The notes under the pieces: generated by a model | The model's database searches: none | The model's input: the letters and a program-made list of their open reading frames with translations, nothing else | What the model was told of the DNA's origin: nothing | Shown: positions 5,723 to 61,290 of the stretch, piece after piece | How positions within the stretch are numbered: position 1 is the stretch's first letter | How the letters are laid out: every line of letters starts with the position of its first letter | Made by a program: the position numbers and the translations under genes | NCBI GenBank assembly: GCA_965153455.1 | Contig: OZ234494.1 | Location: forward strand, 4,216,001-4,280,000 | Origin: Sphagnum compactum | Taxonomy: Eukaryota | Direction: 5' to 3' | DNA length: 64,000 bases

Positions 5723-6014
5723 CCCTCCCTCCCGCAACCTCAGCTTCACGCTAAGCAGATCGATGTTACAACAACCCCGCCACTTCCCCTCCTCCGAGAG
5801 GAGATCTAGGTCTAGCCGATGCACCAGAGAAGAATCTGATGCTTTCCGAGGCTTTAGGGTTTGGCGAGCAGCGACTGGTACAGGAGGAGGGAGACAACAA
5901 CAACAACAACAACAAGGGGGTAAAGCATATTGCTCTCTTCTGTAGACTTTGTTGATGTTGTATGGTGCTGGAATCTCAAAGCGTAAGGAATTGGAGCTCT
6001 TTGGTAGAGAGAGG
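5723..6014. promoter_or_regulatory. Short divergent (bidirectional) promoter between ELP4 and ALKBH8/TRM9, with a telo-box
   Basis: About 290 bp separates the opposing ATGs; TAGGGTTT (AAACCCTA on -) at 5855-5862. Confidence 0.6.
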
Positions 6015-9000: not shown

Positions 9001-9789
9001 ATACACTGTCAAGTCCAAATTCAAGAACTATCTCCCAGAAATTGGACTTTCCCAGTCCTGAGAACCATGTCATAGAGGAAGGTGATTCAAGTGAGATGAT
9101 GTTTCAAGGTCAAGGATCGACTAAGAATCTTGGCTCTAGTGCCAATGATATGACGTGTCAGGTGGAGCAGCAAGAGTATTTTGTGCCTTGGCATTTGCCA
9201 TATCATCGTGCAGAAGTTGGTGGTGCTTCTGCTGCAGCTGTTGCAAGTGGGCTGGCAAAAAAAGATGACACAAAGAGAGCTGTTGTGTACAATCGCTACT
9301 ATCATTGCTTTGTACAAGGCGAGCTTGAGAGGTAATGATATTGTGGGCAATCACTAGTATTTGCATTGACAATGTCTCTCCTTGTCTTCTCTTTCTCTGC
9401 GGCCTACCACTCAGATGTTACTCCAGTTCTTAGTGATTGGTCAACCTGCATTTTATGTGACATTAGTCTCATGGAACCTTTCTCTACAGGTTGTCTTAGC
9501 TTCCACTGAACCACATTAATTTTCCCCTGTGGAGTTTGGTTGGTTCTGTCAAGAAGCATGCAATCCACTTTGGCAAATTGAGAAATTGTTTTACAGTTCT
9601 ATTCTCCTAGTAGCTTCCTTATAATGATGAAGTGTCTCTTGGAAAAGGGATGATTTGCTCAGGTTTGCTATCTAAGGATGTGTTGGTTGCTGTGGGTATT
9701 GTAGGCTGGTGTCAGGTGTACCAGGTGCAAGGATCATTGACCAATTCTATGACAAGTCAAATTGGTGTGTTGTGATTGAGAGGTTATGA
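6015..9789 (+). CDS. ALKBH8: tRNA wobble-uridine modifying enzyme: RRM + AlkB-type 2OG-Fe(II) dioxygenase + Cys motif + Trm9-type SAM methyltransferase
   Basis: HLYVANCGP (RRM), RRVQHYGYEF, DQLT|VNEYPRGVGLSPHIDTH, RYAWHHYIPHHK, RRVSFTFRK|VRSGPCTCIFPEQCDSQ, EKTYVHKVYDAIAPHFSATRF, DAGCGNGKY, ISIAVLHHLS, YFVPWHLP, YNRYYHCFVQGELER, last exon ...FYDKSNWCVVIERL*. The start codon is uncertain (5955, 6015 or 6093). Confidence 0.92.
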
Positions 9790-11662
9790 TGACTATTGAA
9801 TGTGATGATATGTGTCAAATTACCTGGAATAGGGATCATGCCACAGCAGGTGAAATCATTTTGTCTCATCATGACACAATCATACATGTTCATCAAGTTG
9901 GATAAGTGACACCTTTCTACCTGAGTTCGGGGTCGCCATGCCAATGGCTCTGTCAAAGACTGTCTAACCAGACTTAACAAATGATAGGTCAATGTGGAAT
10001 CCCCTTGAAGAAGAGACTGGTCAGTGATGAATGTTAGGAATGCATATGTTGTGTATCATGTGCATTACTAGAGCGAAAACTGACATGACTGGTGGAGAAG
10101 ACACTGTTTATGGAGCTTCCAAACTGCAACTCCAACTGCAAGAAGTAACTTGTGGTTGATGTACCAGTCTTTTGGCAGTCTCAAATTTTCTTAGGGATCT
10201 CCTTTCTGTCAGGAATGCATGCGAGAATATGGTGTCCACTTTATTCAAGCTCTGGTGTTGGATTAGCAATTTGGATTGCAATTTGGAGTACACTGCGAGC
10301 TTGAATCACTTAAAATGGCTTTAGGGACACTGTGTACTCCTGCATAGTCACAGAGTGCTGCGCAACTTACCAACAATCTCAAGCTTGGGATTCAATTCTT
10401 TGTATGAAGCAGGAATGGAATGGAGGATGCTCCAGAGATGATGATATACTTCAATGCTCACACCCACTCATGCCTTCATGATTTCTTCAAAATGAGGTAA
10501 CACTTGATACCACAGCAGTGGTCAACATCCCGACCTGCATTATATCAGTGTCCTTGTGTAAACCATGCCAAAGTGAAGTCAAAACTAAATCGAACTGTCA
10601 CTTTCCACACGAGCAATCCAAGACAGGTTTTTTAAACCTCATAATTCTATGGGAGTTTTTTAGATTGAATTGCATCCCAAATGTGAATGAGTAAAGAAAT
10701 ATATTTGTTTCAAAAGTGTTTGTTGCAAAGAACTGAGTTCCAAGATCTTGCTTCATGGTGTTGTCAACCTTTCTTTCGTTATGATTTATTGTGACAATTT
10801 CCACATGTGACAACAGTGGTCTATGTGGCTTGTGGCCCACATCAGTATGGCTGACAGATTACTCTTCATATTGGCTGCTGATTTCAGTTCCTGATCGACA
10901 GTGTATTTTTTTGCTATGATCCATAATCAGTTGAGGAATTTCTGGATATTGACTGAAAGTTTACAGCTGAAAAGGTGTTGATGATACTCATGTGTTAACT
11001 TGGAAGATGCTTTTGATGTTGCAGATGAAAACTTTTGATGGATTCTTGACAGTATTGAAATTGCCATCTTCTGGTTTTCTGCATTCATTATTTGGTTTGG
11101 AAAGTGTTACTAACAGCATACAATTCCCAGAGTTGACATTTTGCACTTCCGTAGATTGCTTCATGACATGAAACTTCACATTTGTTTCTTGAGTTCTTGA
11201 GTGGTATCCTACATCATAACTCAGTCATGACTCAATCTTCTTTTGTTTCCAAAAATGTGACAAAGACACAATTTTTTAAAATTCCATTTTGTTGTAAGTT
11301 CCAATAGGTAGCCAAGAATATACAAGGATCCTTTTTTCTTTTTTTTAAATTCATATCTTGTTGATAGCCATACTTAGCGAAATTTTCTTTTGGAGGATCA
11401 CCACTTTGCTTACACCACAACACTGAATTAAGAAAACATGGGTTACCATCATCAAGAGGAAGGCCTTACTAAGCAACAATCACATTATCAAGAACTTAAC
11501 AATAGATTTGTGTTTTGGAAACAGAGGACTTGTCATATTTGGCAGGTGGGATTTGATGGATGCATCTAAGAGCTCGCAATATTATACTTAGCTTCATTAC
11601 CATCTAGTGTTGCGCAATTTGTCTCCTTTTACCCGGAACCTATAGATCAAGTTTTCTGGAGA

Positions 11663-28078: not shown

Positions 28079-30727
28079 ATGATCCGTCCTTTGATAGAAT
28101 ATTGGCGGGACCAGAATTTCTGGTCCACACTGTCTGGATCTTTGCTCACACTCCTTTTCATGTGGGTTGCTTATACTGCTGTGGGGATGGTAGACAAGTT
28201 TGTGGTGACTCCCATGAGGATGAAGAGGGTGATGAATAGTCAGGGATTGAAAGGGCCACCCGCGAATTGGCTCCTGGGGAACATGCCTGACCGCCTTAGG
28301 CTTGAGAGTGCAGAATCAGAGAAGATTATGAAGACTGGCGACTACGATATTATGCCTCATGTTCTACCTTTTTATACTAGGAGTTGTCAAGCTTATGGTG
28401 AGTTTTCATGAAATCCCATCTCTCTCAGGTCTCAGAGCGCAGGACGTCCCTCTCAGAGCTCTATGTGATGGACACTAGTAGAGTTATCTGTAAACTCACC
28501 TGCTCTTTGGACCTTTGTTTGACCCTGTTTGTGATGTCCAAACTGGGTAATGGACATCACTAATTTTGACAAAACTGGAAGAATGCCCCCAGTTTGAGGT
28601 ATTAGGTGTATGGATAACTCTTGTACCATATAGAAAAGTTCAATCAGATTCTTGACTTGAGTAAATGTGAATGATGGCATGGCAGGAAAGACACATTTTT
28701 GGTGGCTAGGATGGGAGGCAAGGATCGTGATAACAGAACTTGATCTTGTCAAAGAAATTCTTGCAAACAAGAATGGTTGTTATGAAAAGTCTCAAATACA
28801 ACTTCGATTTCAAAGTCAACTTCTTGGTAAAGGGCTAGTGACAACTAATGGAGAAGAATGGGTTACCCATCGTCAAACTGTGACCCCTGCTTTCCATCAT
28901 GAAAAGATCAAGGTGCAATTTCGGGAACATGCGTGATGTATGTCCAAGAACAATACATAGGTGAAGGTTGCTTGCACCAAGGAGGTCCAAAAGAATAAAG
29001 AGGATAAAAGCAACAAACCTTTCTCATGTGACTCGGAAATACTTTAGATTCATTTGAAAAGGTTGAGAACACCACCAAGAGTCCTAAAACTAGTCCATCT
29101 TTTTGGCTTGTGTAACCTATAAGTTATGTAATGGATTCCATGACAAAGAGTGATATGGTATCATAGGTGCCTACCTATTCCTTTGATTGATGTACAGTGC
29201 AGAATCTAATCTAGATGTGAATTTTTTATTATTGATATAGACCACATGAATTTGAACATTTTACGTCGGACTATGACTTTGTGCACAGGTAATGGTAGCA
29301 GCAATTGCAAAGAGTGCATCATCAATGGCAGATGAATGGGAAACAAAAGTGATGGATGGTGGGGGCTGCGTGGAACTAGAAGTGGGTGATTACATGACAC
29401 GCGTGACAGCTGATATAATTGCACATACCGCTTTTGGAAGTAATTATGAAAGAGGAAGTAAAGTTTTTGATCAACAACTTGCACTCATCGATTTACATGG
29501 TCAAAGAGCCATGCAACGACTTGTTGCCATACTAGGATACAAGTTATCTCATTCATTTTTTTCTTATTCTTTGAAACTATTTTGATCTCGAGTAGTTTAA
29601 TTTGGAATGGACAAAGTACCAAATTTAACTTTGCTAAGTGGTCGTATGTACTTTAAGAACATAATTCATTCATATGATATAGTTCATGCAATGAATACCA
29701 TGAAAATAGTGAGTCTTCAAGTGTGCAAAAATTATGATTTCATTGTGTGGTGAAAATTCTAATGTAGTTGTGTATGTGTTTTGCAGCCTTCTTCCCACAC
29801 CATTAAACATTCAAATATTTGAGACCCAAATGGCAATTTCAAATTCTTTACAAGAAATTATTCAATCAAGGAAGGACATGGTGAATAAAACCAAAAAATC
29901 TTCATATGGAGATGACCTATTGGGTCTAATGCTCACTACGACATTAGAAGAAAATAATTCACAAGTTGAAAAGGCCCAATTTGACATGCAAGCATTGATC
30001 GATAACTGCAAGACCTTTTTCTTTGCAGGACATGGAGCTTCAGCAACTCTTCTCACATGGACCATGATGTTATTGGCATCCCACATGAATTGGCAAGAAC
30101 TTGCTCGTGAAGAAATCAAACAAGTGTGTGGGCATGGTGATTGTTTGCTTGATGCAAACATGCTCAATAAATTGAAAATTGTAAGTTGAAACTTTTTTCA
30201 CCCCATTTTGGAATTACCATTAGCTCACATCATGGACATATCTAATTGTGTTGTGTGTGTGTTGGATGTTGGTGTAGGTAAAGATGATTCTAAATGAAAC
30301 ACTTCGTTTATTTCCACCTTTTGTGGCCCTCACCAGACAAGCAAATAAAGATGTACAGTTAGGTGGTTGGGACATTCCTAAAGGATTGAGCTTACACATT
30401 CCCATACTTGCCATTCACCATGACCCTGACATATGGGGACCGGATGTACATGAATTCAAGCCAGAACGGTTTGTGAATGGTGTTGCCAAAGCAAACAAAC
30501 ACCCTTTAGCTTTTATGCCTTTTTCATTTGGGCAAAGGTTTTGTGTAGGGCAAGGGTTTACTTTAGTAGAAGCAAAATGTGTGTTAGTTGTGGTGCTTCA
30601 ACGTTTTCGCTTTCACCTCTCCCTCAATTATCGCCATGCACCACATCATAACATTACATTAAAAGCAAAGTATGGTGTGCCAATCGTGTTGGAATGTTTA
30701 TCCATGCCAAATCAATCTCAAGGATGA
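28079..30727 (+). CDS. Cytochrome P450, CYP72 clan (5 exons)
   Basis: N-terminal TM segment, QGLKGPP, GKGLVTTNGEEWVTHR, ADIIAHTAFGSNY, CKTFFFAGH, ETLR, KPERF, heme motif FSFGQRFCVG. The five-exon layout is typical of the CYP72 clan. Confidence 0.92.
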
Positions 30728-34989: not shown

Positions 34990-37900
34990 TCACTTAACCA
35001 AAATTGGCTCCACAGGTGCTGAGGGTTGGTGTTTCCTTATCAAGTCAGCAACCAAGATAGCTCCACTGTTCTGGACAGGAGGAGGGGGCCCAACTTGCCC
35101 ACCCAATATCTCATGGAAAAGGTTTTCCACTCTTTGGTACCAGTCCATTTTATTTTCGAGCCGCTCCAGAAAGTGACCCTGCTCATGTCAACAACAGATT
35201 CCATATGAGAGCCTTGTCATTCTTGTATTTTTAGAGTCTAGGGGCTCATTAATCATTTTTTATCTTGTGATCTCAAAATAGGTTATTCATCCAACTCTGA
35301 ATGCCACTCTTTGTATAAGCTTTTGTCAGAGAGTCATCCATGCACCTCGTCTTTGTAAATGACATATTGTACAGCCTTCCTCTTATCCTTGAGAGCCTGT
35401 CAAAATAAGATAACAACCCATCATAATCAGTTCCTGGATTTTCCTCCTTTGACACACAGCTGTTCATGGCAGTCCTCTCATGCATGTAACAAACCAATAT
35501 CTGCAGAGCTGAAATTGACAGTACAAATTACAAACAGAAAACCTGTCTTTGGCTGAGAAAGAAGATCTAGGGTAGAGTTTCTAGCACTTATGCTGAGTGC
35601 TAGAACATAAGTGCTAGCACTCATTCCTCTTGAAGAGCTGATTCTGCTATTCCACTAGTGAAGGTAATTACTCAGTTTCAACAAGTTGGAACAAATTTGA
35701 CACTGTCAATTGCTATGAACTTCAAAGCCTGGAACTTGATGGTATGAGTTTGGAATGGAACTGTGATTAAAATGGATAAAACAAGGTGGGGGGTTATTGA
35801 TGTCTATTGACATCACCTCAAACATTCTCTCACTTTCCCCTGGATTTACCACAACATCGTTCTTCCCATGTGCCATAATCAGTGGAACACGTATGTTATC
35901 CACCTGCATAGCACAAGGTAGCAAGAGGTTGAAAATTTGTGTAACCTTCTGTCATACACATATATCAACTTTGTTGTCTAGTCAATACTGCCAATTGACT
36001 TGCATTAACCAATTATTGCTAACACAAATCAAATACTTCAAATCGATGTAGTTCTTCCACATTGGCTTAAGTCATTCAATTTGGTTCAAATAATGTCTCA
36101 GATTCAAAGATCCTCAGCAGAGCTCCTAGAGTTTCCAATTAGGTTTTTCAATGGGACCTAAAAACCTGAAAGAAGTTTTGTATTCTGTGTACTAAATTAA
36201 ACAACCCAACTTTGTTTAGGATCCAAGACCATTGCTTACATGGAAAATGGGAGATTGGGTCTGATTGAGCTGGTGATCCTTTGTGAGGTCTACCACTCTG
36301 TCATTCAATATTTTGCGTCTTGGTTTCCTACACTCACAATTAAAACTACACATATCAGTGTCAAATTATCACCTTCTTGGGTGATGCAAAAGCACCAGAT
36401 ATAAAGCATAATAAATTTTACCATTCCCAAGCTGCCCATCATTGAACACCTCACTTGTCTCACTTGTCTCACCATAAAGTGAAATTGCACCATTGTAGAA
36501 AAAACTTGCATATTGATAGCTACTAGGTACCATCATCTGTGATTCCCATTGTCCATTGCAACACCTGGGCCCTATTGGGAAAGCAATTACCAGTATGGGA
36601 CAATTTTGGTAGTTACAGTAAAAAGCTGTGAAGGGCCCACCAAATCAGCCGCACACTTATAGAGCTCTGCATCATGACCAATGCTTCTGGAAATCAAGTG
36701 CTCTTCTAGTAACTCGAAACAAAGATTCACATATCAGCTCAGGAAACAGAAATTAGCTGTTCACAAGTTCACAATCTTGTCAAAATTCTGGGTTAAGGAG
36801 ACTCTCAGAATAAAGAATAAACCAGCTGAATTATGGTCAGTTTCAACTAGATACTAAAAACTCACATGGACACATTGTGAGGACTTGTATTGCAAGGGCC
36901 AGGAAATCTCGCCACTTTGGCTCAAAGGGGTATGAGGGCACTGCATATAATCATGTAGATTAGACACATTCAAGAATGTTGGAAATTTTACCTGGGGTGA
37001 AGGTAATGCCCGCAAGAGTGCAATATCCCCCAAAGGAAATGCCTGTAATAGCTACTCTATCCCTGTCTGCATAGCCTTCATTAATTGCCCAAAGAACTGA
37101 ATCTGTTATATCATTCTGTCCAATCACCATACAAGGCATTGAAGTCAAGGAGTGTAAGGCACAAGTTCCACTATAAGCCTGCAGATAGGATGACTGGAGG
37201 TCAACACAAAATTCTGACTCCAGACTTACATGCAAAACCCCCCTTTTGTGACTGTTATTTTGGACAACTGATTGATTGGCATGCATTATTCTCAAGCAGG
37301 TAATTTGAAAGTTAGAAACAGGTGGTGAGGAATGATCTCCGTGTGTAACTTTTAACAACAGAACAACCAAAACCATCCATTTTCAGCAATTGCACACAAG
37401 TTTGAAAAAGTGAATGAACAGGTCTAGAAGAACAGCTGTTGTGTAATGGCTAACAATCGTATCAGTGTCCCACAGCATAAGTAAGTCCTGCGGTCAAAAA
37501 CAAATCTTACTCCAACAACATGAACTTACACCACTGTTAGGGACCAAATGGGGCCCACAATCACTAATAACACCAGCATTGTATTCTTAGCTATCTATGA
37601 GAGCAATTTGTCTCTCAAAATCTGAGATCTACAAGCCATTAAGGCAAGCCCCTTGATTCACAAATCCAAGTTTTCAACAAGCACTTCATAGACCCTCTTA
37701 CTTTCATGCTGTTTTTATGCAGACAACCAGATGGGTGGCCACTGTTTTGGATTATGTTAAGTACCTGCATGGCTGCTCCCCACTGCTTGTCACCAGCATG
37801 CAAAAACTTTTTGCCAAAACCATCAGATCCTCTATACTCCACTTGTAGGCATGCTGTTAAGAGGAAGCAAAAAGCTACTGGTGCACATTAGTAGCACATC

Positions 37901-48383: not shown

Positions 48384-50866
48384 AAACAAGTAGGCCTAGT
48401 TATAACTATTTTATCTCATTTATTTCATATGTGCAATACCCTATGGACACATTGACAATGTAATATCCAACCCAATTCACACATGCATTACCCTCATCAA
48501 AGTAATGCAAATGCAATGGATTATTTTGTTGTTATGCAATACTCATGCCAAAATAACATATTTCACTTCATTTGATTCAAAAATGCAATTACTAGATTAT
48601 TTTGGTCTTATGCAATAGCTTCATGCCTAGGGTATATTTCATATCATCTAATTGAACAATGCAATACCCTATGGATACATTCACAATATCATATCCAACC
48701 AATTCAGCCATGCATTATTTTCATTAGAATGATGTAATACCTAAAGACAAAATACAAATATCATATCCAACCATATTCACATTTACATTACCTTCAGTAG
48801 GGTAATGCATATCCTCTAGACCATTTTGGTGTTTCACAATACCTTTAGGCCAATTGAAATTATTTCATTTTGTTTATTTCAACAATGCAATACCTTGAAG
48901 ACATATTGGAAATAACTTATGTTGGCCCAATGTGCAATACCTTAATATGGGTGTTAAGCAATATTTAATTGTGGCCTCACATAATACTAAAGTAAAAAAA
49001 TCTAGTTTAATTGCAATACATTTATTTGGTTTACCCTATTCCTATTAAGGTTATACGATACCATCTTGGGTGTAATAAGGTTAAGTTTGGGGTTTAAGGT
49101 ATTGCATGGACCAAAAAACAATCAAAGCCTATGCAATATTGTTATGAGTATATTAAGTTTAAGGATAGGGTTGATGAAATGAATATGTTTTGTCTTGTCT
49201 CGAGGGCATTGCATAACAAAAGTGTAAATGCAATACCCTCATCATGCATATATAAACATATCAAAATTCTAACTATGAAATAAAGGATTTTTTTATGATG
49301 AAAGTAATGCACAAAATCATGCCTTTAGGCTTTAATAACTTCCACAAAAATGTATAAACTATAATTACAATATCCTCATGTATTAACAATACATCCAATC
49401 AATTTTTTGTTCAATGCAAGATGCACATACACTATATATGGATCTTAATAACCTTCTTTATGTACAAATAAAATTCAAAACTTTTATAAGTAGATATATT
49501 TACATACATAAGTAGATACATTCATTTCCAAGGTCAATGGGTTATATCCATGGAGGTTAAATTAATCTAAAAATGTGGCATGGAAAATTCATGGATGCCA
49601 TATGCATGGTACAAAATGTGTATTAGTCCAAAAATGGAATGTCAAACTAATTGATCTCACCCTCACTCTCACTAGAATTCTCATTAATATATTTCAATGA
49701 TAATCCATTTGCACTCTGATAATGTGCCACGGCATTTTGTGCAAATTGAACATATTGTTAGGTATATATTTGCTAGCTTGCCAAAATTATCTTCACCAAA
49801 TCAACTGTGAAGGCCTCCTTGGTGGTATTTTGAATCCTAAAGTGGACATACACACAAACTAATGAGTATAATTTTGGAAACACATGTTTGAAACACAATA
49901 CAAATTTGAAGTGAAAATTGAATGTGATGGAACTTACTGGCCATGAATCATCTCCAATTCATGGTGATTACCAAGTCAAATGATCTCCTTTTCACGTTCC
50001 TTTTTAGATGAAGATCTTGTCCAATTTTGGCTATCCCAAACATCTCTAAATCCCTTTGCATACGAGACAATATTAGCCCAAATTAAACCGGCAAGATTCT
50101 CATCCCTCTTTAGTTTAGTCATTACATGGGGAGGATATCCCACACCCCATGTTGGAATGCTTAATAAAGTGAGCAACTTGAAAGAAGCGACTTTTACCAA
50201 TGTGCACATCAATTTCAATTTTATTCATAGTCCATTTTCCACAAGTGATCCCATTCACATGTGGCATGGGTCTTTGTTCGAACAATTGCCCAACACACAA
50301 AAGAGGAGTTTACCTTTTCCCACACACACACAAAAAAAAAACAAAAAGAAAAATAAAAATAAAAAACCCCAAAAACAGTATTGAGAAAAACAAAAAAAAA
50401 CCAACAAAAAAAGAAATAACTAATATTTTCAAAAGTTACACAAAACAAAAAATAAAATAAAAATAAAAATAATTAACAAATTAAAAAAACAAGAGAATTT
50501 GAAAAAACAAGAAAAAAAAACCAAAAGAAAAATTCAAACCCCCACAAAAATTATTTAAAAACCATTTCAAATAACAAGAAAAAATAAAAAAGAGATAAAT
50601 ATTAACTAGAAATAAAACCAAAAATATAAAACCAAAAATTTCAAGAACTACAAAAATCAAAAAATCAAAAAAAAAAAAAATCCAAAAAAAAACTAGGAAA
50701 AAATATTTTTTAAACTCTAAAAATATATGTATTAAGAAAACCAACAAAAACTAAAAAAACAAGATAGATTTTTTTGAATTACAGAAAATTAAAACAACAA
50801 ATAAAATAATAAGTACTGTCAAAAAATACTTTCACTTTAGAATTTTCCTAAGATTGTTTTGCCATT

Positions 50867-51180
50867 TGTCATGCCCGTATGCATGGCCTCATATATGACA
50901 GCCGGTTATGGGCATGCCACTCATGCCTTTTAGGGTTAATGTATGCTCTTAAGGTTAATATACCCTTAAGTTATTGTACACTATTAAGTGTTTAGGGTTT
51001 CAGCTTGTTGGCGGCTATATAAAAGGTCAAGTTCTTCCCTTCTTTTCTTAGTTTTTCTAGAATTCCTTTGTCAAAGAAAGTTTCTTCCATAGTCAGATTG
51101 GATTTCTAGATGTTCACGGAGGCCATTACATAGCCAGCGTTTACATACACTTCTTTTCTTTCCTTCTTTGCAATTTTAAT
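50867..51180 (+). repeat. Terminal repeat A1 (contains TATATAAAAGG)
   Basis: Direct repeat of 59042-59338; similarity ends at ...GCAATTTTAAT. Confidence 0.92.
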
Positions 51181-51257
51181 TCTTGAAAAACTACTCTCTA
51201 TTGCTTAGTGTTGAAAGCGGCAGATTTTTCTTGGTTGTGATATTTTGGGTTTCTTTT

Positions 51258-52600
51258 TAACAGCATCTGATCAGCATCGTCTATCCTTTGACATACCTAA
51301 CATGGATAGTCAAATGGAAGAATCAAAGTCGACATGATGATGGTAAGATTTAAATTCGGTAGGTGGCAAGGTGCATAGTTTTTGGAGTGATCCCGAATTG
51401 TGCGTTCATCAGCTCCTTGTAACTCCAACACACCTGAAGGCCTAATCGCCTTAATCCTCAAAATAGTGCGACCGGAAAAAGTGTTTAGAATATCATTAGG
51501 TTGCCGCTTGAAATACACAAAATCACCAACATCAAATTGTTTCACCTTAAGTTTGTAACTGCCACCTTGTGTGTGTGCATATCGTAAGGTGTCTCGATGC
51601 TATGCAATGGACAAGTTCTCCATGGCCATGGGCATAACCTTTTTGAATAGAGCAGCCCTCTTTGCGATGACCCTAGCCCAAATGGCTGGGGAGTCCAAGT
51701 CCACAACCTAGTCCATTTGAGCAATAATGGAAGAGGGTGGAATGGGATGTCTCCCAAAAAGTAGAAAGTAAGGAGAGAAATGAAACAAGAGGTGTTTGGA
51801 CATCTTGTAACCCATGGCGATGTAAAGTAGGGCCAAGTCCCAATCCTCTTTATTCCTAGTGAAGAAAATCTTCCGAAATACCTTCTTGCATGTCTGAACC
51901 ATCCTCTCTGCAAGGCCATCATGAACTTGGGGATGATCCCTTGAAGTTCGGCGATGGTCAATGAGAGCATGGTCAAGTAGGTCTTGGAATTCTCTTCTGA
52001 ATTCTGATCCTTGATCAATAAGGCACTCAGCACAAGCCCTAAACCTACTTAGGACCTATTGTAAGAAAGCCTGGCTGGTGCTGTGTGATGATTTGTCTGG
52101 CAACGCAACAAGCTCGACCCACTTTGAAAAAAGCTCAATCATAATCATGATGTAGACATTACCCCTGGAGGTTTGTGGTAACTCTCAAGCTAAATCACAT
52201 GACCAGCAATAAAACATGCCTTGAATAGGAAGTGGAGAAAGCGTGAGCTGTCGAAATGAGAAGGAAGTTTTCACTCTATCACATTGTTCACACCTAACAA
52301 TGATGTCTCAAACTTGAGCATACATACTTCTCCAATGGTAATGAGGAGCGAGAAGGCTATAAGTACGCTTAACTCCAAAATGCCCAAGCTCCGAGTGTAC
52401 CTTCTAAATAAGACCAGGCCGTTCATGTGGTGGAGGAACCACTTTGTCGCCTTGTGGTAAGCATCGGACGAGGTGATTATCCTTCCATGAGTAGCGTTTG
52501 GACCGATGTTGTATGTGATCCCGATGACTTGATGTAACTTGGGAGGGTATTCCCCATGCTGAAGATTCTTCAGAATGTCCAAGTCCTCCCATATATCCAC
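51258..52600 (-). pseudogene. DDE integrase with C-terminal extension and the first half of a PHD finger
   Basis: HSELGHFGVKRTY..HYHW (HHCC zinc region), core with DQGSEF-like and ERMVQTCKK segments, FSPYFLLFGRHP, FDVGDFVY, then YPC*VCQRIDDADQMLL. Frameshifted. Confidence 0.88.
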
Positions 52601-52779
52601 AATGGGATGTTCAACCAGGTTACATTGTAATAGTGCAAGATAACTAGATGCATAAGATACATGTACTGCTGGAATCTAGTCGAAGTCTTGCCTGACTTCT
52701 AAGAAATTTTCAAAGGTAGTGAGGGGTCTCTGCGACATGGTATCCGTGTTCTGATGTGTAATACCAGGTCAGTGAATAA

Positions 52780-54364
52780 CCTTGAACTCATATTCCTAAA
52801 CTATAAGCGCCCAATGAGCTAACTTACCAGTAAGCTTGTCGTTGGTCATCAACCATTTGATAGGCTAGTGGTCGATATACAAAGTGAACTCGGTGCCATA
52901 AAGATAGGGCCTGAAATCTATGATGACCCATACAATAGCAAGACACTCCCCTCGTATGAAGAGTAGTTGCTCTCGGCCTTGTTGTTGCTTCGAGATGCAC
53001 ATATAGGCGATAACATATTCCTTGCCTTTTTCATCAAGTTGGCCAAGAATAACACCGATACCAAAAGCATTCCAGTTAATGTGTAGAATGAAAACTTTGC
53101 TAAAATTAGGTCTTCTCAAAATGGGGAACTCTAAAAGATTTTCCTTGAGTGTGTCAAAAGCTTCCTGAGCCTCTTCACTCCATGTCCAAGCAACATCCTT
53201 TTTTAACAATGCATAGAGAGGATGTGCAATATTACTGAAGTCTTGGACATAAATCCTGTAGTAATTACATAGTCTGATGAAGCTCCTCAAAGTGTGAACA
53301 TTAATAGGATTGGGCATCTCCAAAATGGCTACTACTTTGGCCCAATGAGCCATAATACCATTTGGCAAAATTTTATGTCCAAGGTAGACTATTAAGGTGA
53401 CAACAAACTCACACTTTTTAGGATAGATCTTCATATTGACTTCGTGGAGCCTTTTGAATAACTCCTTAAGATGAGCTAAGTGTTGCAGGAGTCCCTTGCT
53501 ATGCACTAGGACATCATCTATGTATATTCAGAAATTTGCCCCTTCGAGAACCTGGTCCATGACTCGCTGAAAGAAGACAGGTGCATTCTTCAATCCAAAA
53601 GGCATCACAAGCCATTCCCACAACTTCTTGCTTCCATGGAATGTCGTTTCCTTACAATCCTTCGCAGTGAGCACAATCTGGTTGAAGCCTTGCCTCAGAT
53701 CCATAATTGTGAAGATGTTTGAGTCTCCAATGTTATCAAATAGTTCTTCAGGGATGGGCATGGGGTACGTGTCCTGAGGTGTAACCACGTTCAAAGGCCT
53801 ATAATCCTTACACATCCTTTTCTCAGTCCATAATCTAGCTGAATCCTTTTCGGTTAGCATTATTGTAACGGCTGCGAATTCAAAACTTGATGGCTGAATG
53901 AAACTAGCCTCATGGAGCTCTTTGCATCTTTCATCTACTAGTTCCCACTCATGCTTACTCAACCTATGCCTCCTTCGATAGATGGGCATCTCATCTGTAA
54001 GGTTTATAGAAAACTGCATGGTCTTACACCTACCTAAGTCTTTCATTGAGAATGCGAACACATTCTCATACTTAATTAGCAAATTTGTGACCTGGTGTCT
54101 CTCCTTCTTGGTGAGCTGGTTCCCCATAACGAAAGGGTAGTTGGAAACACATGGAATGGAGTTCGAAAGTGTGTTTGAAGAACTTGGTGTATTGGGTTTT
54201 CCACTATCCAACTGCGCAGATTCGTAGAAGGTTAAAATTATTTCTTTAAAAGCTGATGTACCTCCGGGTGTATCAGAAACAACTTGAGTCAAATTACATG
54301 GTACCTCCTCCCCCCCAACACTAAGAGTGAAATGTAGAGTGTTGGAGATAGGCAAGTGTACTTG
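52780..54364 (-). pseudogene. Ty3/Gypsy reverse transcriptase + RNase H
   Basis: RMCKDYRPLN, YPMPIPEELF, DLRQGFNQI, VMPFGLKNAPVFFQRVM, YIDD (just after an in-frame TGA), YLGH, FILH..GIGVILGQ, GECLAIVW, FRPYLYGTEFTLYIDH. Confidence 0.95.
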
Positions 54365-54369
54365 GTCAG

Positions 54370-55191
54370 TGACGCGCTCCCAAGTCCCTAGTTAGTCCCA
54401 AGATGGGGCTAACTTGCTCAAGTTGCGAAAAAGTGAGGGACTTGGGGCACGCTCCCAGCCTTCAACACTAAAAGGGGTAGAGGGGCGTGCTGAAGCCTCG
54501 GGATGGGACTAGGAAGAGTGACAAGCTTACTTACTTACTCGAACTTGCATCAAAACCAACCAACAAGTTGGTTAGATCACTTTCTGGGGCACCCTTGGTG
54601 CTAGGACAAGCCACGGGCAACTCTGGACTCACAAGACTCACCACGGCCCAAATTCGGGCGAAGCCACCACCTTCCCCCATATAGTGTTCTCTGCATTTTC
54701 CCAAGGCACCCGCATCCGAATGGCTTTTTGTCCCGGGACTCCCAAGGAGGAGTCCCGAAATTATCTCGGTTTGAACTCCTGGGACTTTGGAAGCTCATAA
54801 CTCCCAATTCAGACCTCTGATTGGAATGAAGTTTAAAATAAACTTGTAGCTCTTCTCAAGAGCTTTCCAACAGTGTGTTGCACTCCACCTGCACACACCA
54901 GGATCGGGTCAATTCCCGACTTTTAGTGGTCGGGAGTCAAACTGCCAGTTTGACTCCCAGACCTTCTTTCGACCATAACTTGTGTTGCAGATGTTTGAAT
55001 GGCTCATGCAAGGCCATTTTCGACATCTACACTTCAAGACCTTTCTAATGGTATAAAGAACACCTCAATGTAAGGTGTTTTAACCCTTGCAATCAAGCTC
55101 TGAATTTTTGGGAGTCCCGAAGGACTCCAAGTTCCCACTTTCGGGAGTGTGAGTTTCATCCTCACACTTGCCTCAAAGTGGGGTTGCGACA
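54370..55191. mobile_element. Nested solo LTR of a different family (822 bp)
   Basis: TGACGC...GCGACA termini, flanked by GTCAG and GTCAA (5-bp TSD, one mismatch). Removing it restores the host Pol frame (TTWHLD-QVHLPISN). Confidence 0.85.
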
Positions 55192-55279
55192 GTCAAGGTG
55201 CCATGTAGTTGCATCGCGAGAGTTGCAAGCTGATTGAATCAGTGTTGCTGTTGTGTACATTTGAAAGAGTACATAGATT

Positions 55280-56230
55280 ACCAATAACCGTGTAAGGGAG
55301 TTCAGGTCCATGCCTCTCCCCAGTAGAGCGTTACACTCCAATCTAGACACCTTGATGTGACTAGTAGTGCCAGTTTGGAACCCCATAACCCTTTCTCTTT
55401 CTTCTGGGTTTGGTTCATCCCAAGTGGCTGAAACATAACAATACATCAGGCTTGGTCCATCTCCCTGAAAGGCGTGTGCTCCTGGGAAGGAGACAAAGGT
55501 GGGCCAAGCACCTCTTGGTTTTCCTATTGTGTTCGCTAGAAACCAAGGAGGTTTCTCTTGCCTTGTAACTGGTTGGGAGGAGCTCTGATCATCCAATATG
55601 TGAGAAACCTGCAGGTTGGGATCTCTGATGGTGTATCTTAGAGCCAACTGCAGAACTGAAAGTGGTGCAAGGTTGATCCACTAGTTGCATAGCCGATGCG
55701 CATAGGAGCCGCATTATGCCGCATCAAGTAAGGGCGGCTCTCCAAGGTAATGTTTGACCAACGCGTAGTGCTCCTAGACTTTCTCCCTCTGGTCAAGCTA
55801 AGAAGGGGTGTTCTCAATTACATAACCAAGCGTAGGGAAAATGGATTGAGCCCAGGTGATCAATCGTACCATGTCCATGAAAAGACCAGATCTTGTGTCC
55901 CTCAAGCCTTCTCCAAATCCAGCCGTTGAAAATCCTTCACACTCCCAACCTGAAATGATGAGGTCCACGGGGCCAAGTAATTCCATATGCTTCTTTTGAA
56001 TTAGTTGTATGTCAAAGGACAAGAAAGTGAAATTGGCCTTTTAGACGATGGTTACAAACTATTGTCGAAATTTGGATGTGAGCTCCATCATATTCGATGC
56101 CACCACTTGCCTTGCAATAGGATCAATGTCTATGTAGAAATACCTCCGAACCACCATCCTTGACTGTAGTAGGGCTTCGAGACTTGTACCAATACCACTA
56201 AAGAGCTATAGTAATATAATCCCCTCCTTA
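55280..56230 (-). pseudogene. C5 cytosine DNA methyltransferase domain (DNMT3-like) inside Pol
   Basis: Hand translation, one frame: motif I ILL*LFSGIGT, II YFYIDIDPIAR, III DI, IV VDLIISGWECEGFS, V LRDTRSGLF, VI YVIENTP, VIII LDAA*CGSYAHRLCN*WINL, IX ERERVMGF, X LLGRGMD. Seven in-frame stops and no frameshift. Confidence 0.9.
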
Positions 56231-56639
56231 GGTAATGTCCAGGTGATGAGCTGACGAAATACTAGTTTAATCGGTTCGCCATGGCTCTCCATGTTTTCAA
56301 AACTAGACAGAACTTTGACTAAAAGTTCGTGGGCTACTTTGAACCGTTGTAAAACCTTTGGTCCGTGTTGAATGTCAGTAGGAACCACTTTTAAGCTTTC
56401 AGTAGCTTGGGCATAAAATGTCTCCTCTTCATCTCCCTTTATCCACTTGTGGCTAGTTTGTTGGATGTAAGAAATGGTGTGTGCTTCCTTGAGCATACAA
56501 TGGTGAGCCATAGGGCTATGGTTCCCATGTAAATCAAGGGGTATGTATCCCAGGTGGTGGCCATCAGTCTCCCAATCCACTCGGTAGTACGCATGCTCGA
56601 ACCAATTGTTAATTATGAAACCTGGTGGAAACAGGGCCT

Positions 56640-56930
56640 CTTGCCCAATGAACACATCGTAACCACTAGCATTGGTGATTAAACATCTGACCTGTAGGCA
56701 AAGCTCCTAATCTGTACCTTCATTGAAATTAAATGCAATCAAATCCGAGCTCTCCCCAAAAACCTCCTCTCCGCTCCCAGTAGCGGTGCGAATTTACCAC
56801 ATAGATTTTCGTAGTTTGGAGTCGAACATGACCATCTTCTTGGTGAATTGAACTCCAAGAATCACTGGTTGGGCACCTGTATCAAGAACTATTACTTTGG
56901 GTGTGTGTCCTCCCACTTGGATTGTTGACT
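56640..56930 (-). pseudogene. Retroviral-type aspartic protease
   Basis: VIVLDTGAQPVILG ... IRTATG ... YDVFIG, in the same frame as the DNMT. Confidence 0.85.
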
Positions 56931-57229
56931 CAATATTGTCGACAATGGCAACTCCGGTGGCGATGGAAGTTTTCTCACTAGGCACCACCTTCGGAAATGA
57001 ATGAGAGACTTTGTGGACAGAATGGCTATCCACAATGCCTTTGCTAAGTAACAAATCCACAAGTGAGGTGTTATTAGCTTCTTTCTGATATGTGAATATA
57101 GAATCAGTGGTAGGAGAACCCACTAGTTTAGCCATGCTAAAACTAGTGACCAAATTACGAACGCCATCTGTAACACATGAGCTAATTGAATGTTTTCACA
57201 AGGTGTTAGATGGGACCCCTGTAACATGT

Positions 57230-58080
57230 GGATCAGGGATTGGCAGAGGGCCTGATGTAGTGTTCAGGGTATCCTTTAGTACTGCAATTATGTCCCTGGT
57301 GCTTAGCTTCAAATTTTGAAAAACTAAACAAAGGTGTATTCACAAGCTTTTGCGCCACTTCACGCATTTGAAATTGGCACTCCATAAGTTGATTAGTGGA
57401 AAATTGTGTGTTTTCTTGATGTACATGTACTCCTAGGACACGAGAATTTGATGCCCTAGCAGCTTGTGGTGTAGTAGTTTCCCCCCCTGCCAACAAGGTG
57501 CGTTCTTCTTCCGTGTTGAAAGGACGAAAAGATTGTGGCATGACTGCTCGAGCTCCTCTAGCCCTGGTAATAGGACTTGAACCAGATGTGAGTCCATTAG
57601 TCTGAATTGTATGCACTCCAAAAAAAATACTCCCCAACCATGGCATCGTGTGGGAGGCCATAGAACAAGCTAAGAGGTCCCTTTCATGATCCTCGGTGAC
57701 GCCCAAAATCCTCAGAGAATGTTACTCATAGACATTCAATGCCTCATAGTGCACATAACAGGCTAGTTGTTTGAATGCAAACGCTTCGGTGTAATTAACA
57801 CCATACTTGAGCTCCAATTCACAAACCACAGTTGAGAAAGTTACCTTGAACTCCCTCAAAGAAATGATACCTGGCCTTCCGTTAAACTTCTCAATTCTCT
57901 CAGAGGAACTGTTGACCTCCATGGTGTATATGGGTGTAGAGGTAATGGCTTGTAGCGGAATATACGGTGATGGTGTGAAAGCTGGTGCAGCCGCAGGCGT
58001 ACCCCACTGATTTACCCCTCCAAATGGACTTTGATGTATCGTTGATGTAGTGTAATTTGAACCTGAATTCCTCGTAGGAG
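57230..58080 (-). pseudogene. Gag-like remnant (probably internally deleted)
   Basis: ERIEKFNGRPGIISLREFK (a KF-x-G gag-type start), located upstream of the protease. Confidence 0.55.
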
Positions 58081-58698
58081 TTGTATTGGATTACGGTGGT
58101 ACTGTAGACGCATGATGGTACTGTCGTGAAAAGCGTGAGCTCAAAGAAATCGGCTCAAATGATTGTGTGTTACTTCGTAGTTGAAAGTCCAACGGACGTC
58201 GACAGAAGTTAGAAGTCTACGACGCGACGGACGGTATTACGAGCGTGCGTGAACTTCACGACGATGGCGGGTGACAACACGACGAATGCAGCACTGTAGT
58301 TCGCTATGAATACCGCACTGCATCTTGCAACGCTGCGACTCGTGATCGACACTACGTTGCAACTCGCAACAGACGCCGCGTTGCAAGTTACGGTGTTGCA
58401 GGTCGCGACGAACGTCGCGCTACAAATCGCAACGCTGCAGCGATGGCGGATGTGACACTGCAACAATGGCGGACGCGATGCTACAGCTCGCAGCGTTGCA
58501 AATCGCCTAGAAGCAAAACTTTTTTTTTTTACTTGTCTTCATGTGTCTCTGCGTAAGAAAGAGAAAGAGCTTTGAAACCTGTTCTAAGATATGTCACTCC
58601 CCTGTTTAGTCTCGCTTTTCCCAGCTCTTTCATTCTCGGCTCTGTTGGTTGGTAGACGTGTAACAGCACAACCTCCCTCCAGTAGTCGCAACTCCAGC

Positions 58699-58800
58699 AA
58701 TTGTAATGGTGGATACCATCTATTCTGCCTCAAGTTGAAGCTCACTCAAGTTCCCGCCGGCATTTGGTACTGTTCATCATGTTCTCCTGCAGCACCTTGA
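58699..58800 (+). pseudogene. Second half of the integrase C-terminal PHD finger
   Basis: NCNGGYHLFCLKLKLTQVPAGIWYCSSCSPAAP*. Confidence 0.88.
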
Positions 58801-58850
58801 TTTCTACTCAAACCATGCCACACTTTTCCCAGCTCAAGTCTGGAGGGGGA

Positions 58851-59039
58851 TACATGAGAATTTCATTTTAGCCTCCTCTTGTGCATTGTATGTATATGTG
58901 CGTGCATCTCTTTTTGGTTGATTAATTTATACCTTTGACTGGTTTTAATCTTCTTACTTAGTAGAGTCTGCTATGGATTTACACCCTTACAACACTGTAC
59001 GTCACGACACTACACGTCACGACACTACACGTCACGACA
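58851..59039 (+). repeat. Terminal repeat B1, ending in 15-bp ACGACACTACACGTC units
   Basis: Direct repeat of 59338-59500; directly follows the purine tract. Confidence 0.92.
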
Positions 59040-59041
59040 AA

Positions 59042-59338
59042 TATCATGCTCATATGCATGGCCTCATACATGATGGCCGATTACGGGCATGCCACTCATG
59101 CCTTTTAGGGTTAATGTACGTTCTTAGGTTACTGTACGTTATTAAGTGTTTAAGGTTTCAGCTTGTTGGCAGTTATATAAAAGGCCAAGCTCTTCCCTTC
59201 TCTTGTTAGTTTTTCTAAAATTCCTTTGTCAAGGAGAGTTTCCTCCATAGTCAGATTGGATTTCTAGATGCTCACGACAGCCATTACACGGCCACCATTT
59301 ACATACACTTCTTTTCTTTCCTTCTTTGCAATTTTAAT
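59042..59338 (+). repeat. Terminal repeat A2
   Basis: Direct repeat of 50867-51180. Confidence 0.92.
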
Positions 59339-59500
59339 ACATGAGAATTTCATCTCAGTCTCCTCTTGTGCATTGTATGTATATGTGTGTGCATCTCTTT
59401 TTGGTTGATTAGTTTATACCTTTGATTGGTTTTTATCTTTTTGCTTAGTAGAGTTTGCACCTTTACGACACCATATGTCACGACACTACACGTCACGACA
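59338..59500 (+). repeat. Terminal repeat B2
   Basis: Direct repeat of 58851-59039; ends CACGACA. Confidence 0.92.
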
Positions 59501-61290
59501 CATCTAATTATAACTACCATCCAATAACAATACTATTATCTCCTATATTACACATGGTGTTCAACCAACATAGGATAAATTTATACCCTTAACATGGGAC
59601 TATGATACCATGTCTTATTTGTGATAATACTTGCCACATATATATCACCTACATTTCACTACTTAACGACGCAACCTATTTCATTGGTGCATTCCATTCA
59701 AAATGTCACATTCCATTATAGTGGAATTGGTGCAATTTAATGGAAACCAATTGGAATGTGAAGTGGATGCACAAACTACTGTAGTGACCCTTGATTGCAA
59801 AGGTGTATTAATTGGTTTGCACATATGCCTAAAGTTGAAAATCATTCATTTGAACATATAGTTGGTAATGTAATAGAGTAGCCTCATTGATGGAGTGTTT
59901 CTTTGGATGAAGTATAACATTTACATGTTAGTTTGGGTCAATAAATATTGTTAAGGAAAATAAATATTCACATGATCCAACAATTGTAAAAGACACTACA
60001 CAATAATATTACTACTCTTGATTGGCTAGCTATAATGATTGGTTCATATAGTTGGCTATAAATATTCTCATTTTATATTGTCTCATATTCTATGTGAAAC
60101 ATTTATAGGGGCCCAAATAAAGGGCATGGGTGAAGATATTCTTATATGCCTTAATTAATTACATTTTTTGGAAGTCACGTTTAATTAAAGTCTTGACTTA
60201 TCTTAATTTCAGGATTTTTTTACTTTTGAAAATTTCAAGATTTGCCATTTTTATGCACTTCCCATTTTTAAAAAAGAAAAAATGTACAAAGCTAACTTTT
60301 CATACAAAGATATGGTCCATGTTCAATATGTGATGAATATCATATTGCGTTAATTTAAATTGCATTAAATATTTCTATCATTTTTTTATTATGTCTGAAA
60401 CACTAAGGTTTTCTCTATTTTTGTCTAAAAAATTTATTATTTGGATTTAGTTTTATAAAGAATTAGGGAACATGCCCTAAGTTTTGATAATTTATGTTGT
60501 AATATAGCCACCACCACTTGATGAGGTTGGGGGTACATTAAAGATCTTCTCAAAATAATACTTATAAATAATTTATATTATTGTGGAAATGAAATCAACA
60601 AGGAAAGTAAGACTATGGTACGTTCACTACATGATAACATATATTGTTTGTTCCAAATTACTATAATGTGTCCAAAAATGTGAAAATTTGAACAACCAAA
60701 GGTTTAAAAATGTGCGTTGGGTCTAAGAAAAATGTATGCTACAACTATGTTAGAGAGCCCACCTGCCAAAGGAAGTAATAAGGAATACATGGAAAAGGTT
60801 TTAATCCCTTCCTATGTGGTTGAGGTTGAAGGTTTTTTTGTAAACCATAGGGCTATGCCACAAAGAATACATATGTAAGGATATATTGTTGTATGGATGT
60901 TACATGGTCTCTATTGCACCACTAATGTAAAATGTCATCATGAACTTTTGCTTTGGCTTTCTGTAAGCAAGAAAGCTTTTGGTTGAACATAAAGCATGCA
61001 CCTCGTCCTTGGCCCCTTATTTTGGGAATGCTCCCACCTTGAGGCTTTACCTTACACTTAATTTGTATAATTAATAACTTCAATAAGTACATAAGATTAA
61101 CACCTTCTCATTATAATGAAAGAAATATATATATTTTCAAGTTTAAGGAGTAAACCAACCTTTGTGTTGTTCCTTTGAATGAACCTTATCAATATAATAA
61201 AATCAATAACCAGATAGTTGGTTATTGATAATTGGTTTGATAACCTAGTTGATAATTGGGTCAATAATTAAAAAACCATTGGCCAACGTT

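Follow-up and report, generated by a model that had tools for sequence, protein, structure and literature searches.

DNMT3-type domains of cytosine DNA methyltransferases (DNMTs) have been reported inside retrotransposons. The study by de Mendoza et al. (2018; PMC5890265) describes such a domain in the Pol polyprotein of a Klebsormidium nitens Gypsy element, which has few copies and a Ka/Ks below 0.2, and further DNMT3-type domains in DIRS and LINE elements of Symbiodinium. A 2025 paper (PMC12344493) also places some DNMT3 members in retrotransposons of streptophytes and dinoflagellates. An opinion paper states that transposons with DNA methylases are absent from land plants (PMC6338049), and our literature search, with subscription journals and supplements outside its reach, found no case in a moss or any other land plant; it turned up just two cases, the dinoflagellate elements and the low-copy Gypsy element of Klebsormidium. 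Here we analyse a 64,000-nucleotide stretch of contig OZ234494.1 (the window, whose positions are used throughout) and a retrotransposon copy that lies within it. A region on the minus strand of the window is very probably the methyltransferase domain of a dead Ty3/Gypsy-type copy, whose polyprotein would run gag, protease, DNMT3-like methyltransferase, reverse transcriptase (RT), RNase H, DDE integrase and PHD finger. The element is a new case of the known kind of DNMT-bearing retrotransposon, and probably one from a land plant.

55270-56247, minus strand: DNMT3-like C5 cytosine methyltransferase domain; PF00145 match, canonical order of motifs I-X, seven in-frame stops.

A first-pass annotation, made from the letters of the window, had listed C5 methyltransferase motifs in canonical order, and all of them were found on the minus strand in one frame. 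LFSGIGT lies at 56205-56185, GWECEGFS at 55950-55927, IENTPS at 55818-55801, ERVMGF at 55395-55378 and LLGRGMD at 55326-55306, with IDID, DTRSGLF and DAA*CGSYAHR likewise present in this frame; the order is canonical and non-permuted. The Pfam search proposed in the annotation gave a clear answer. PF00145, which has a gathering score of 22 bits, matched the 80-residue open piece with 37.1 bits (E 3.3e-9) and the read-through translation, in which stops were written as X, with 35 bits (E 1.4e-8), and it also exceeded its cut-off in the related locus L008 and in the database proteins P0012, P0003 and P0041. The seven stops of the domain are not accompanied by any frame shift. Moreover, a single minus-strand frame leads from the aspartic protease through a conserved linker into the methyltransferase, and residues 364-1073 of P0012 align with 57321-55192 as one tblastn segment (69% identity), in agreement with the earlier claim that four open reading frame (ORF) pieces share the frame of the protease. 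The presence of a methyltransferase domain is confirmed.

54370-55191, minus strand: nested solo long terminal repeat (LTR) of another abundant family, 822 bp, TG..CA ends, target duplications at 54365-54369 and 55192-55196.

In the window copy this LTR separates the methyltransferase from RT. Its flanks, TTGAC (55196-55192) and CTGAC (54369-54365), are alike in 4 of 5 bases, so that the 5-bp target duplication proposed in the first pass is present with one difference. Excision of 827 bp fuses ..TTWHLD with QVHLPISN.., in frame with RT. This restored frame, also part of the earlier claim, agrees with P0012, an intact database ORF of 1315 residues that reads ..HTLHPDQVHLPIFNTLHFTLGVGGEEVPCNLTQ.. 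unbroken from the methyltransferase into RT. It also agrees with loci L008, L003, L040, L018 and L073, in which window position 55197 adjoins 54367, and with contigs that skip the 827 bp (54364 to 55192), three in a single DNA run and one in an RNA-library run. Full-length matches of 54370-55191 at about 80% identity occur in L003, L005, L014, L029, L044, L046 and L047, and at 54370 the reads have a loose end whose flanks vary. Two of these loci, L046 and L047, contain two direct copies of the LTR (7478-8301 and 10288-11103) about 2 kb apart, which suggests that the nested family is a short non-autonomous LTR element.

The same arrangement was found well beyond the window. Database proteins with the domain were collected by a word-based search, and metagenome contigs by a scan with P0012 as the query, which gave 344 pattern hits, 301 of them encoding a relative; the best 80 of these 301 form our set of genomic loci. 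P0003 (2358 residues) carries the protease at 663-711, the DNA_methylase domain at 953-1137 and RVT_1 at 1443-1596, followed by RNase H, integrase and a PHD finger at 2300-2344. P0041 (2188 residues) has the same domain order, and P0012 is laid out gag-protease-DNMT-RT. Intact ORFs with the protease, DNMT and RT in succession, which the first pass had proposed to look for, are therefore at hand in P0012, P0003 and P0041. At the genomic level, L008 contains an open 847-residue frame that spans DNA_methylase, RVT_1 and RNase H. Within the locus set, the methyltransferase is kept between the protease side and RT in all 50 of the loci that cover both, a count biased towards domain-keeping copies since the query itself includes the domain and the set is limited to the best hits. 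Sister copies with the flanking parts and no methyltransferase, an outcome the annotation had allowed for, make up 0 of these 50. These results agree with its proposal that the DNMT is an integral Pol domain.

The wider clade of retroelement DNMTs has far more members than the literature describes. An exhaustive search, made without profiles against 1.84 billion representatives, matched the domain to 1405 proteins at E<=1e-3; the number falls to 546 at E<=1e-10 and to 172 representative clusters at E<=1e-30. Using segments of P0003, we sorted the domain order in 159 sequences. Nineteen are of type A, in which the domain follows the protease or precedes RT (PR-DNMT-RT, as in the window). In 87, of type B (RT-RH-DNMT-INT-PHD), it follows RNase H or precedes the integrase, and 53 show the domain only. 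Type-B proteins include P0005, P0007, P0022, P0024 and P0036, and some exceed 3000 residues. A PHD finger (PF00628) was detected in P0003 and in P0005. In a quick maximum likelihood tree of 120 full domains (LG+G4, with the Shimodaira-Hasegawa-like approximate likelihood ratio test, SH-aLRT, as the only support measure and no outgroup), one branch with support 99 parts 16 type-A domains and 5 of unknown layout from 79 type-B domains and 20 of unknown layout, and the layout label changes once. The window domain is sister to P0012 with support 100.

The window copy is heavily rearranged by an inversion, the nested LTR and a deletion, and this would suit a host DNMT fragment captured once, or a chimera of nesting or assembly, in this copy alone. 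We give that explanation next to no probability. Order and frame are identical in the 50 sister loci and the same in intact database ORFs from other sources, and the type-A clade (16 rows and 5 of unknown layout) is split from type B with SH-aLRT 99; the explanation was rejected on the sister loci, the domain tree and the ORFs of L008 and P0041. The evidence supports the domain as a trait of the family, and not as a passenger or a one-off capture.

As the first pass had suggested from motifs VIII-X, the domain is most like DNMT3. Against solved structures, phmmer placed DNMT3A first (E 3.6e-5), then DNMT3B and DNMT3C, DRM (0.0063) and M.HhaI (0.012). P0034, a protein of 325 residues from the type-A clade with 40% identity to the window domain, gave an AlphaFold model with a predicted local distance difference test value of 94.4. 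Every listed rank of a Foldseek search with this model was a DNMT3A, DNMT3B or DNMT3C catalytic domain (E 1.6e-20, template modelling score 0.81, about 24% identity). No Pfam match to a PWWP or ADD domain was found in P0001, P0002, P0003, P0012 or P0041; the reader module of the window family is a PHD finger at the far C-terminus of Pol, and not an N-terminal PWWP or ADD domain. These matches also bear on the substrate. A position just upstream of RT would bring the domain near the RNA template, and de Mendoza et al. raise RNA methylation for the LINE-borne DNMT in their paper (PMC5890265); the domain might accordingly methylate RNA in the manner of DNMT2, with the genomic RNA of the element or its primer tRNA as the target in place of DNA. 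We consider this quite improbable, since the nearest structures and sequences are DNMT3-type DNA enzymes and not DNMT2, and since the SymbioDIRS-Dnmt3 domains are described in that paper as methylating CG in DNA.

The catalytic motif deserves separate attention. Across 30 aligned domains, the motif IV Cys, the Glu of motif VI (ENV) and one Arg of RxR are invariant, and the other Arg is nearly so. The first pass had pointed out that motif IV reads Glu-Cys (EC) in place of Pro-Cys (PC). This is real and common across the family: the window, P0002, P0012, P0003 and the majority of type-B members have EC, and a minority, for example P0004 and P0006, has PC. Both states are found in both layouts (among 79 type-B domains, GWECQDLS occurs 33 times and GWPCQDLS 10 times), EC being the commonest in each and the PC members being interspersed. 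SGWECQGFS is the commonest form among the sister copies. Two changes are specific to the window, namely ECE, in which the Gln after the Cys has become Glu, and AHRLC, in which the second Arg of RxR has become Cys. Judged by this distribution across sequences, the EC motif is an old family trait and not decay of the window copy.

The prevalence of EC at motif IV in both layouts would fit a pseudo-enzyme with a methyltransferase fold, in which the EC form transfers no methyl group and the domain serves Pol as a DNA- or chromatin-binding module, for example by tethering the pre-integration complex. The Klebsormidium Gypsy DNMT, which showed no methylation in yeast according to PMC5890265, also speaks for it; the authors call that result inconclusive, as human DNMT3B failed in the same system. 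Set against the pseudo-enzyme are the catalytic Cys, the ENV Glu, one RxR Arg and the FxGxG glycines, which vary little or not at all among 30 diverged domains, and the occurrence of PC-type among EC-type members in both clades. We regard the pseudo-enzyme as unlikely, although it is the most serious of the alternatives considered here.

We lean slightly towards an active domain with the following role. In live elements, the domain would be made as part of Pol and, with S-adenosylmethionine, would methylate cytosines of the new cDNA of the element, or of the newly integrated copy and the DNA around it. The PHD finger at the C-terminus of the integrase may read histone tails and so steer the site of methylation. 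The same role was proposed for Pol-embedded DNMTs by de Mendoza et al. (2018; PMC5890265).

Several observations weigh against the explanation as a whole, in addition to the EC motif, the yeast result and the sampling bias of the locus set. All 80 loci (the best 80 of 301) are degenerate, and the longest plus-strand ORF among them has 847 residues. A close full-length intact polyprotein was not found: above 2303 residues, only P0003 (36% identity) and P0182 appeared at E 1e-30, which is weak evidence of absence. The comparison of dN/dS among copies, which the first pass had proposed, gave a mixed result. The pairwise Nei-Gojobori (NG86) median for the DNMT was 0.375 (2333 pairs from 69 sequences). 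The medians of the other parts were 0.522 (protease), 0.316 (linker), 0.354 (RT) and 0.323 (RNase H). The DNMT value lies below both of its wrong-frame controls (0.46 and 0.71), but only modestly so, and for the protease the true frame is not the lowest. The controls place the neutral baseline well below 1 and therefore make the selection signal modest, and because the DNMT value is near them the sampled copies differ mostly by neutral decay. Pairwise NG86 dN/dS was consequently rejected as proof of selection on the domain, the controls making the test weak.

Other measures point to some constraint. Divided by the mean diversity of positions 1 and 2, the diversity of third codon positions was 1.22 for the DNMT (bootstrap 1.04-1.42), 1.25 for RT (1.01-1.51) and 1.42 for RNase H, which suggests a weak coding constraint on the DNMT, equal to that on RT. 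Open frames and catalytic residues are retained across proteins that are only 36-41% identical, and this retention is a stronger argument for long-term function than dN/dS.

The family is very abundant in its host. A single DNA run has 94,806 contigs that match the element with a likeness of at least 80%. Their summed depth across the methyltransferase part is comparable in magnitude to that across RT and the integrase, contig depth not being copy number. About one third of the sampled words are present in seventeen DNA-type runs under five coded organism labels. The RNA libraries with the family are only those of moss metagenome (two runs) and plant metagenome (one run), whose contigs cover the family including the DNMT part; DNA can occur in such libraries, and this coverage is therefore not taken to prove transcription. 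The nearest atlas cluster of the P0012 domain is Streptophyta, and the nearest clusters of a tRNA cm5U34 methyltransferase gene of the window are Streptophyta as well. The earlier proposal of a land-plant lineage therefore holds at the level of Streptophyta, for the host gene and the nearest clusters, and its narrowing to a moss comes solely from run labels. When the window was compared with other copies in the DNA run, C in the window against T in the copies and G against A occurred at 569 places each, and the reverse changes at 243 and 232; this excess fits deamination of methylated cytosines in the family.

The remaining parts of the element copy are as follows.

50867-59500, canonical orientation plus, inner part inverted: whole retrotransposon copy, 8634 bp, with ends TGTCATGCC...CACGACA.
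50863-50866, plus strand: left target-site duplication CATT; its partner CATC at 59501-59504 matches in 3/4 bases.
50867-51189, plus strand: terminal repeat B, first copy, matching 59042-59347 with 83.8% identity over 321 bp.
51262-58697, minus strand: inverted internal segment (gag, protease, DNMT, RT, RNase H, integrase and the N-terminal half of the PHD finger).
51237-52550, minus strand: integrase, comprising zinc-binding and core domains and, at its end, the N-terminal PHD half; tblastn match to P0003 residues 1882-2323, 49.8% identity.
52865-54364, minus strand: RT and RNase H (PF00078, PF17919, PF17917), two in-frame stops.
56248-56643, minus strand: conserved linker from protease to methyltransferase, no Pfam family.
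56644-57195, minus strand: aspartic protease, DTGAQP at 56883-56866.
57233-58090, minus strand: gag remnant, about 1.05 kb deleted near 57693, frame change near 57310.
58698-58797, plus strand: PHD finger of the integrase, C-terminal half, CNGGYHLFCLKLKLTQVPAGIWYCSSC, opposite in strand to the rest of Pol.
58850-59025, plus strand: repeat A, first copy.
59042-59347, plus strand: repeat B, second copy.
59337-59500, plus strand: repeat A, second copy, closing the element.

The element combines Ty3/Gypsy coding capacity with split terminal repeats. The protease, RT, RNase H and integrase follow one another in Ty3/Gypsy order (PF13650/PF13975, PF00078, PF17917/PF17919, PF17921, PF00665), with the DNMT after the protease; PF13975 and PF13650 match the aligned protease part of P0002, P0012 and L038. 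TG..CA ends and a short target-site duplication are present, as in Ty3/Gypsy LTR retrotransposons. The 4-bp target duplications are perfect in three of three canonical loci (L008 GGTC, L003 CCAA, L073 ATCA), whose ends are those of the window copy. These loci begin with repeat B and a leader, continue with the coding part from gag to the PHD finger and close with A, B and A; in L040 and L018 only the first A is seen, with other sequence beyond it. The window, L008, L003 and L073 thus share split repeats of the form B-coding-A-B-A and do not have a like LTR at each end. The tyrosine recombinase and the lack of target duplication that mark DIRS elements were not found, a DDE integrase and 4-bp duplications being present instead. 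Kimura two-parameter distances between the repeat copies of the window are 0.13 for B and 0.10 for A (58850-59025 against 59337-59501). A joint from 50865 to 59510 in one DNA contig was considered as an empty site and rejected, as its shorter side has 26 bases and six other letters lie between.

The window copy is dead, by its stops, gag deletion, nested solo LTR and internal inversion. Nine stops fall between the protease and the end of the methyltransferase domain, in addition to the two in RT-RNase H, and the gag deletion corresponds to L008 9553 to 10602, which is missing from the window. The inversion of 7.4 kb splits the PHD finger between strands, with about 9 bases lost at the joint. 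The N-terminal half reads C*VCQRIDDADQMLL at about 51300-51256 on the minus strand, and the C-terminal half matches P0003 residues 2318-2348 (BLASTP, 55% identity, E 5e-10). In five canonical loci, window position 51261 adjoins 58698 and the coding part is co-oriented with the repeats, and reads contain joints between 51259 and 58699 on opposite strands. The inversion could be a true rearrangement or an assembly error.

Upstream of gag, 58185-58697 has no match in canonical copies. The DNA run has a very low summed depth there, with 987 in bin 58175-58481 against tens of thousands elsewhere, and the stretch contains an odd 109-residue open frame with many C, S, V and A residues. Directly left of the insertion site lies an A-rich low-complexity tract (50320-50820). 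Plant-type host genes elsewhere in the window, named from their translations alone and only the first of them compared with the atlas, comprise a spliced ALKBH8/TRM9-like tRNA methyltransferase with an RRM (5946-9335, plus strand), a cytochrome P450 with introns (29713-30727, plus strand) and a prolyl-oligopeptidase-like serine peptidase with introns (36960-37382, minus strand).

Taken together, we see an even balance for and against the broader reading that the genome of a land plant, a moss, holds at very high copy number a Gypsy-type lineage encoding a DNMT3-like methyltransferase. This lineage would be the PR-DNMT-RT branch of a large and mostly undescribed superfamily, both branches of which would end in a PHD finger, and it would join DIRS-style split repeats to integrase-type target duplications. 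If true, it contradicts the printed view that land plants have no transposon-encoded DNA methylases, and the split repeats with target duplications would point to an unusual replication route, raising the question of how a split-repeat element replicates before a DDE integrase inserts it. DNA methylation is the main weapon of the host against transposons, and a transposon that carries a writer is therefore of real interest. If live members still write 5-methylcytosine, transposon-borne de novo methylation would stand beside that of the host DNMT3, DRM and CMT. ORFs that are intact in nature are now available for tests of activity, and the family offers a tangible case in which to study whether plant methylomes are shaped by element-borne DNMTs. 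As far as our search of the literature reached, none of the following is in print: split repeats together with target duplications, a PHD finger at the tip of the integrase, an EC motif throughout the family and the two Pol layouts.

Among known systems, KnitGypsy-Dnmt3 of Klebsormidium resembles the window family by its published description, and not by a comparison of sequence or of the place of the DNMT in Pol. It too has a DNMT3-related, non-rearranged DNMT inside a Gypsy-type Pol ORF, and its repeats, A-coding-B-A-B (Fig. 4c legend, DIRS-like), are equivalent to the B-coding-A-B-A of the window family. Both have streptophyte hosts, although that of KnitGypsy-Dnmt3 is a charophyte alga and that of the window family is probably a moss. 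According to the same paper, KnitGypsy-Dnmt3 has few copies and a Ka/Ks below 0.2, whereas the window family has a very high copy number and its sampled copies are mostly decayed. SymbioDIRS-Dnmt3, described in that paper as well, shares a DNMT3-like domain in Pol, two coexisting domain orders and A-coding-B-A-B repeats. However, it has a tyrosine recombinase, in contrast to the DDE integrase (PF00665, PF17921), TG..CA ends and 4-bp target duplications of the window family.

The cellular enzymes DNMT3A, DNMT3B and DNMT3C, plant DNMT3 and DRM resemble the window family in catalytic fold and in the order of motifs, and are its best sequence and fold matches. The LLGR of motif X is common to DNMT3 and the window domain. 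DRM is permuted, whereas the motifs of the window domain are not. Unlike cellular DNMT3, the window family has no PWWP or ADD domain by Pfam, mostly has EC at motif IV, is embedded in a polyprotein and is only about 24% identical to DNMT3A. Chromoviruses are Gypsy elements with a chromodomain at the C-terminus of the integrase. They resemble the window family in the fusion of a chromatin reader to this end of the integrase, but the reader is a chromodomain in chromoviruses and a PHD finger in the window family.

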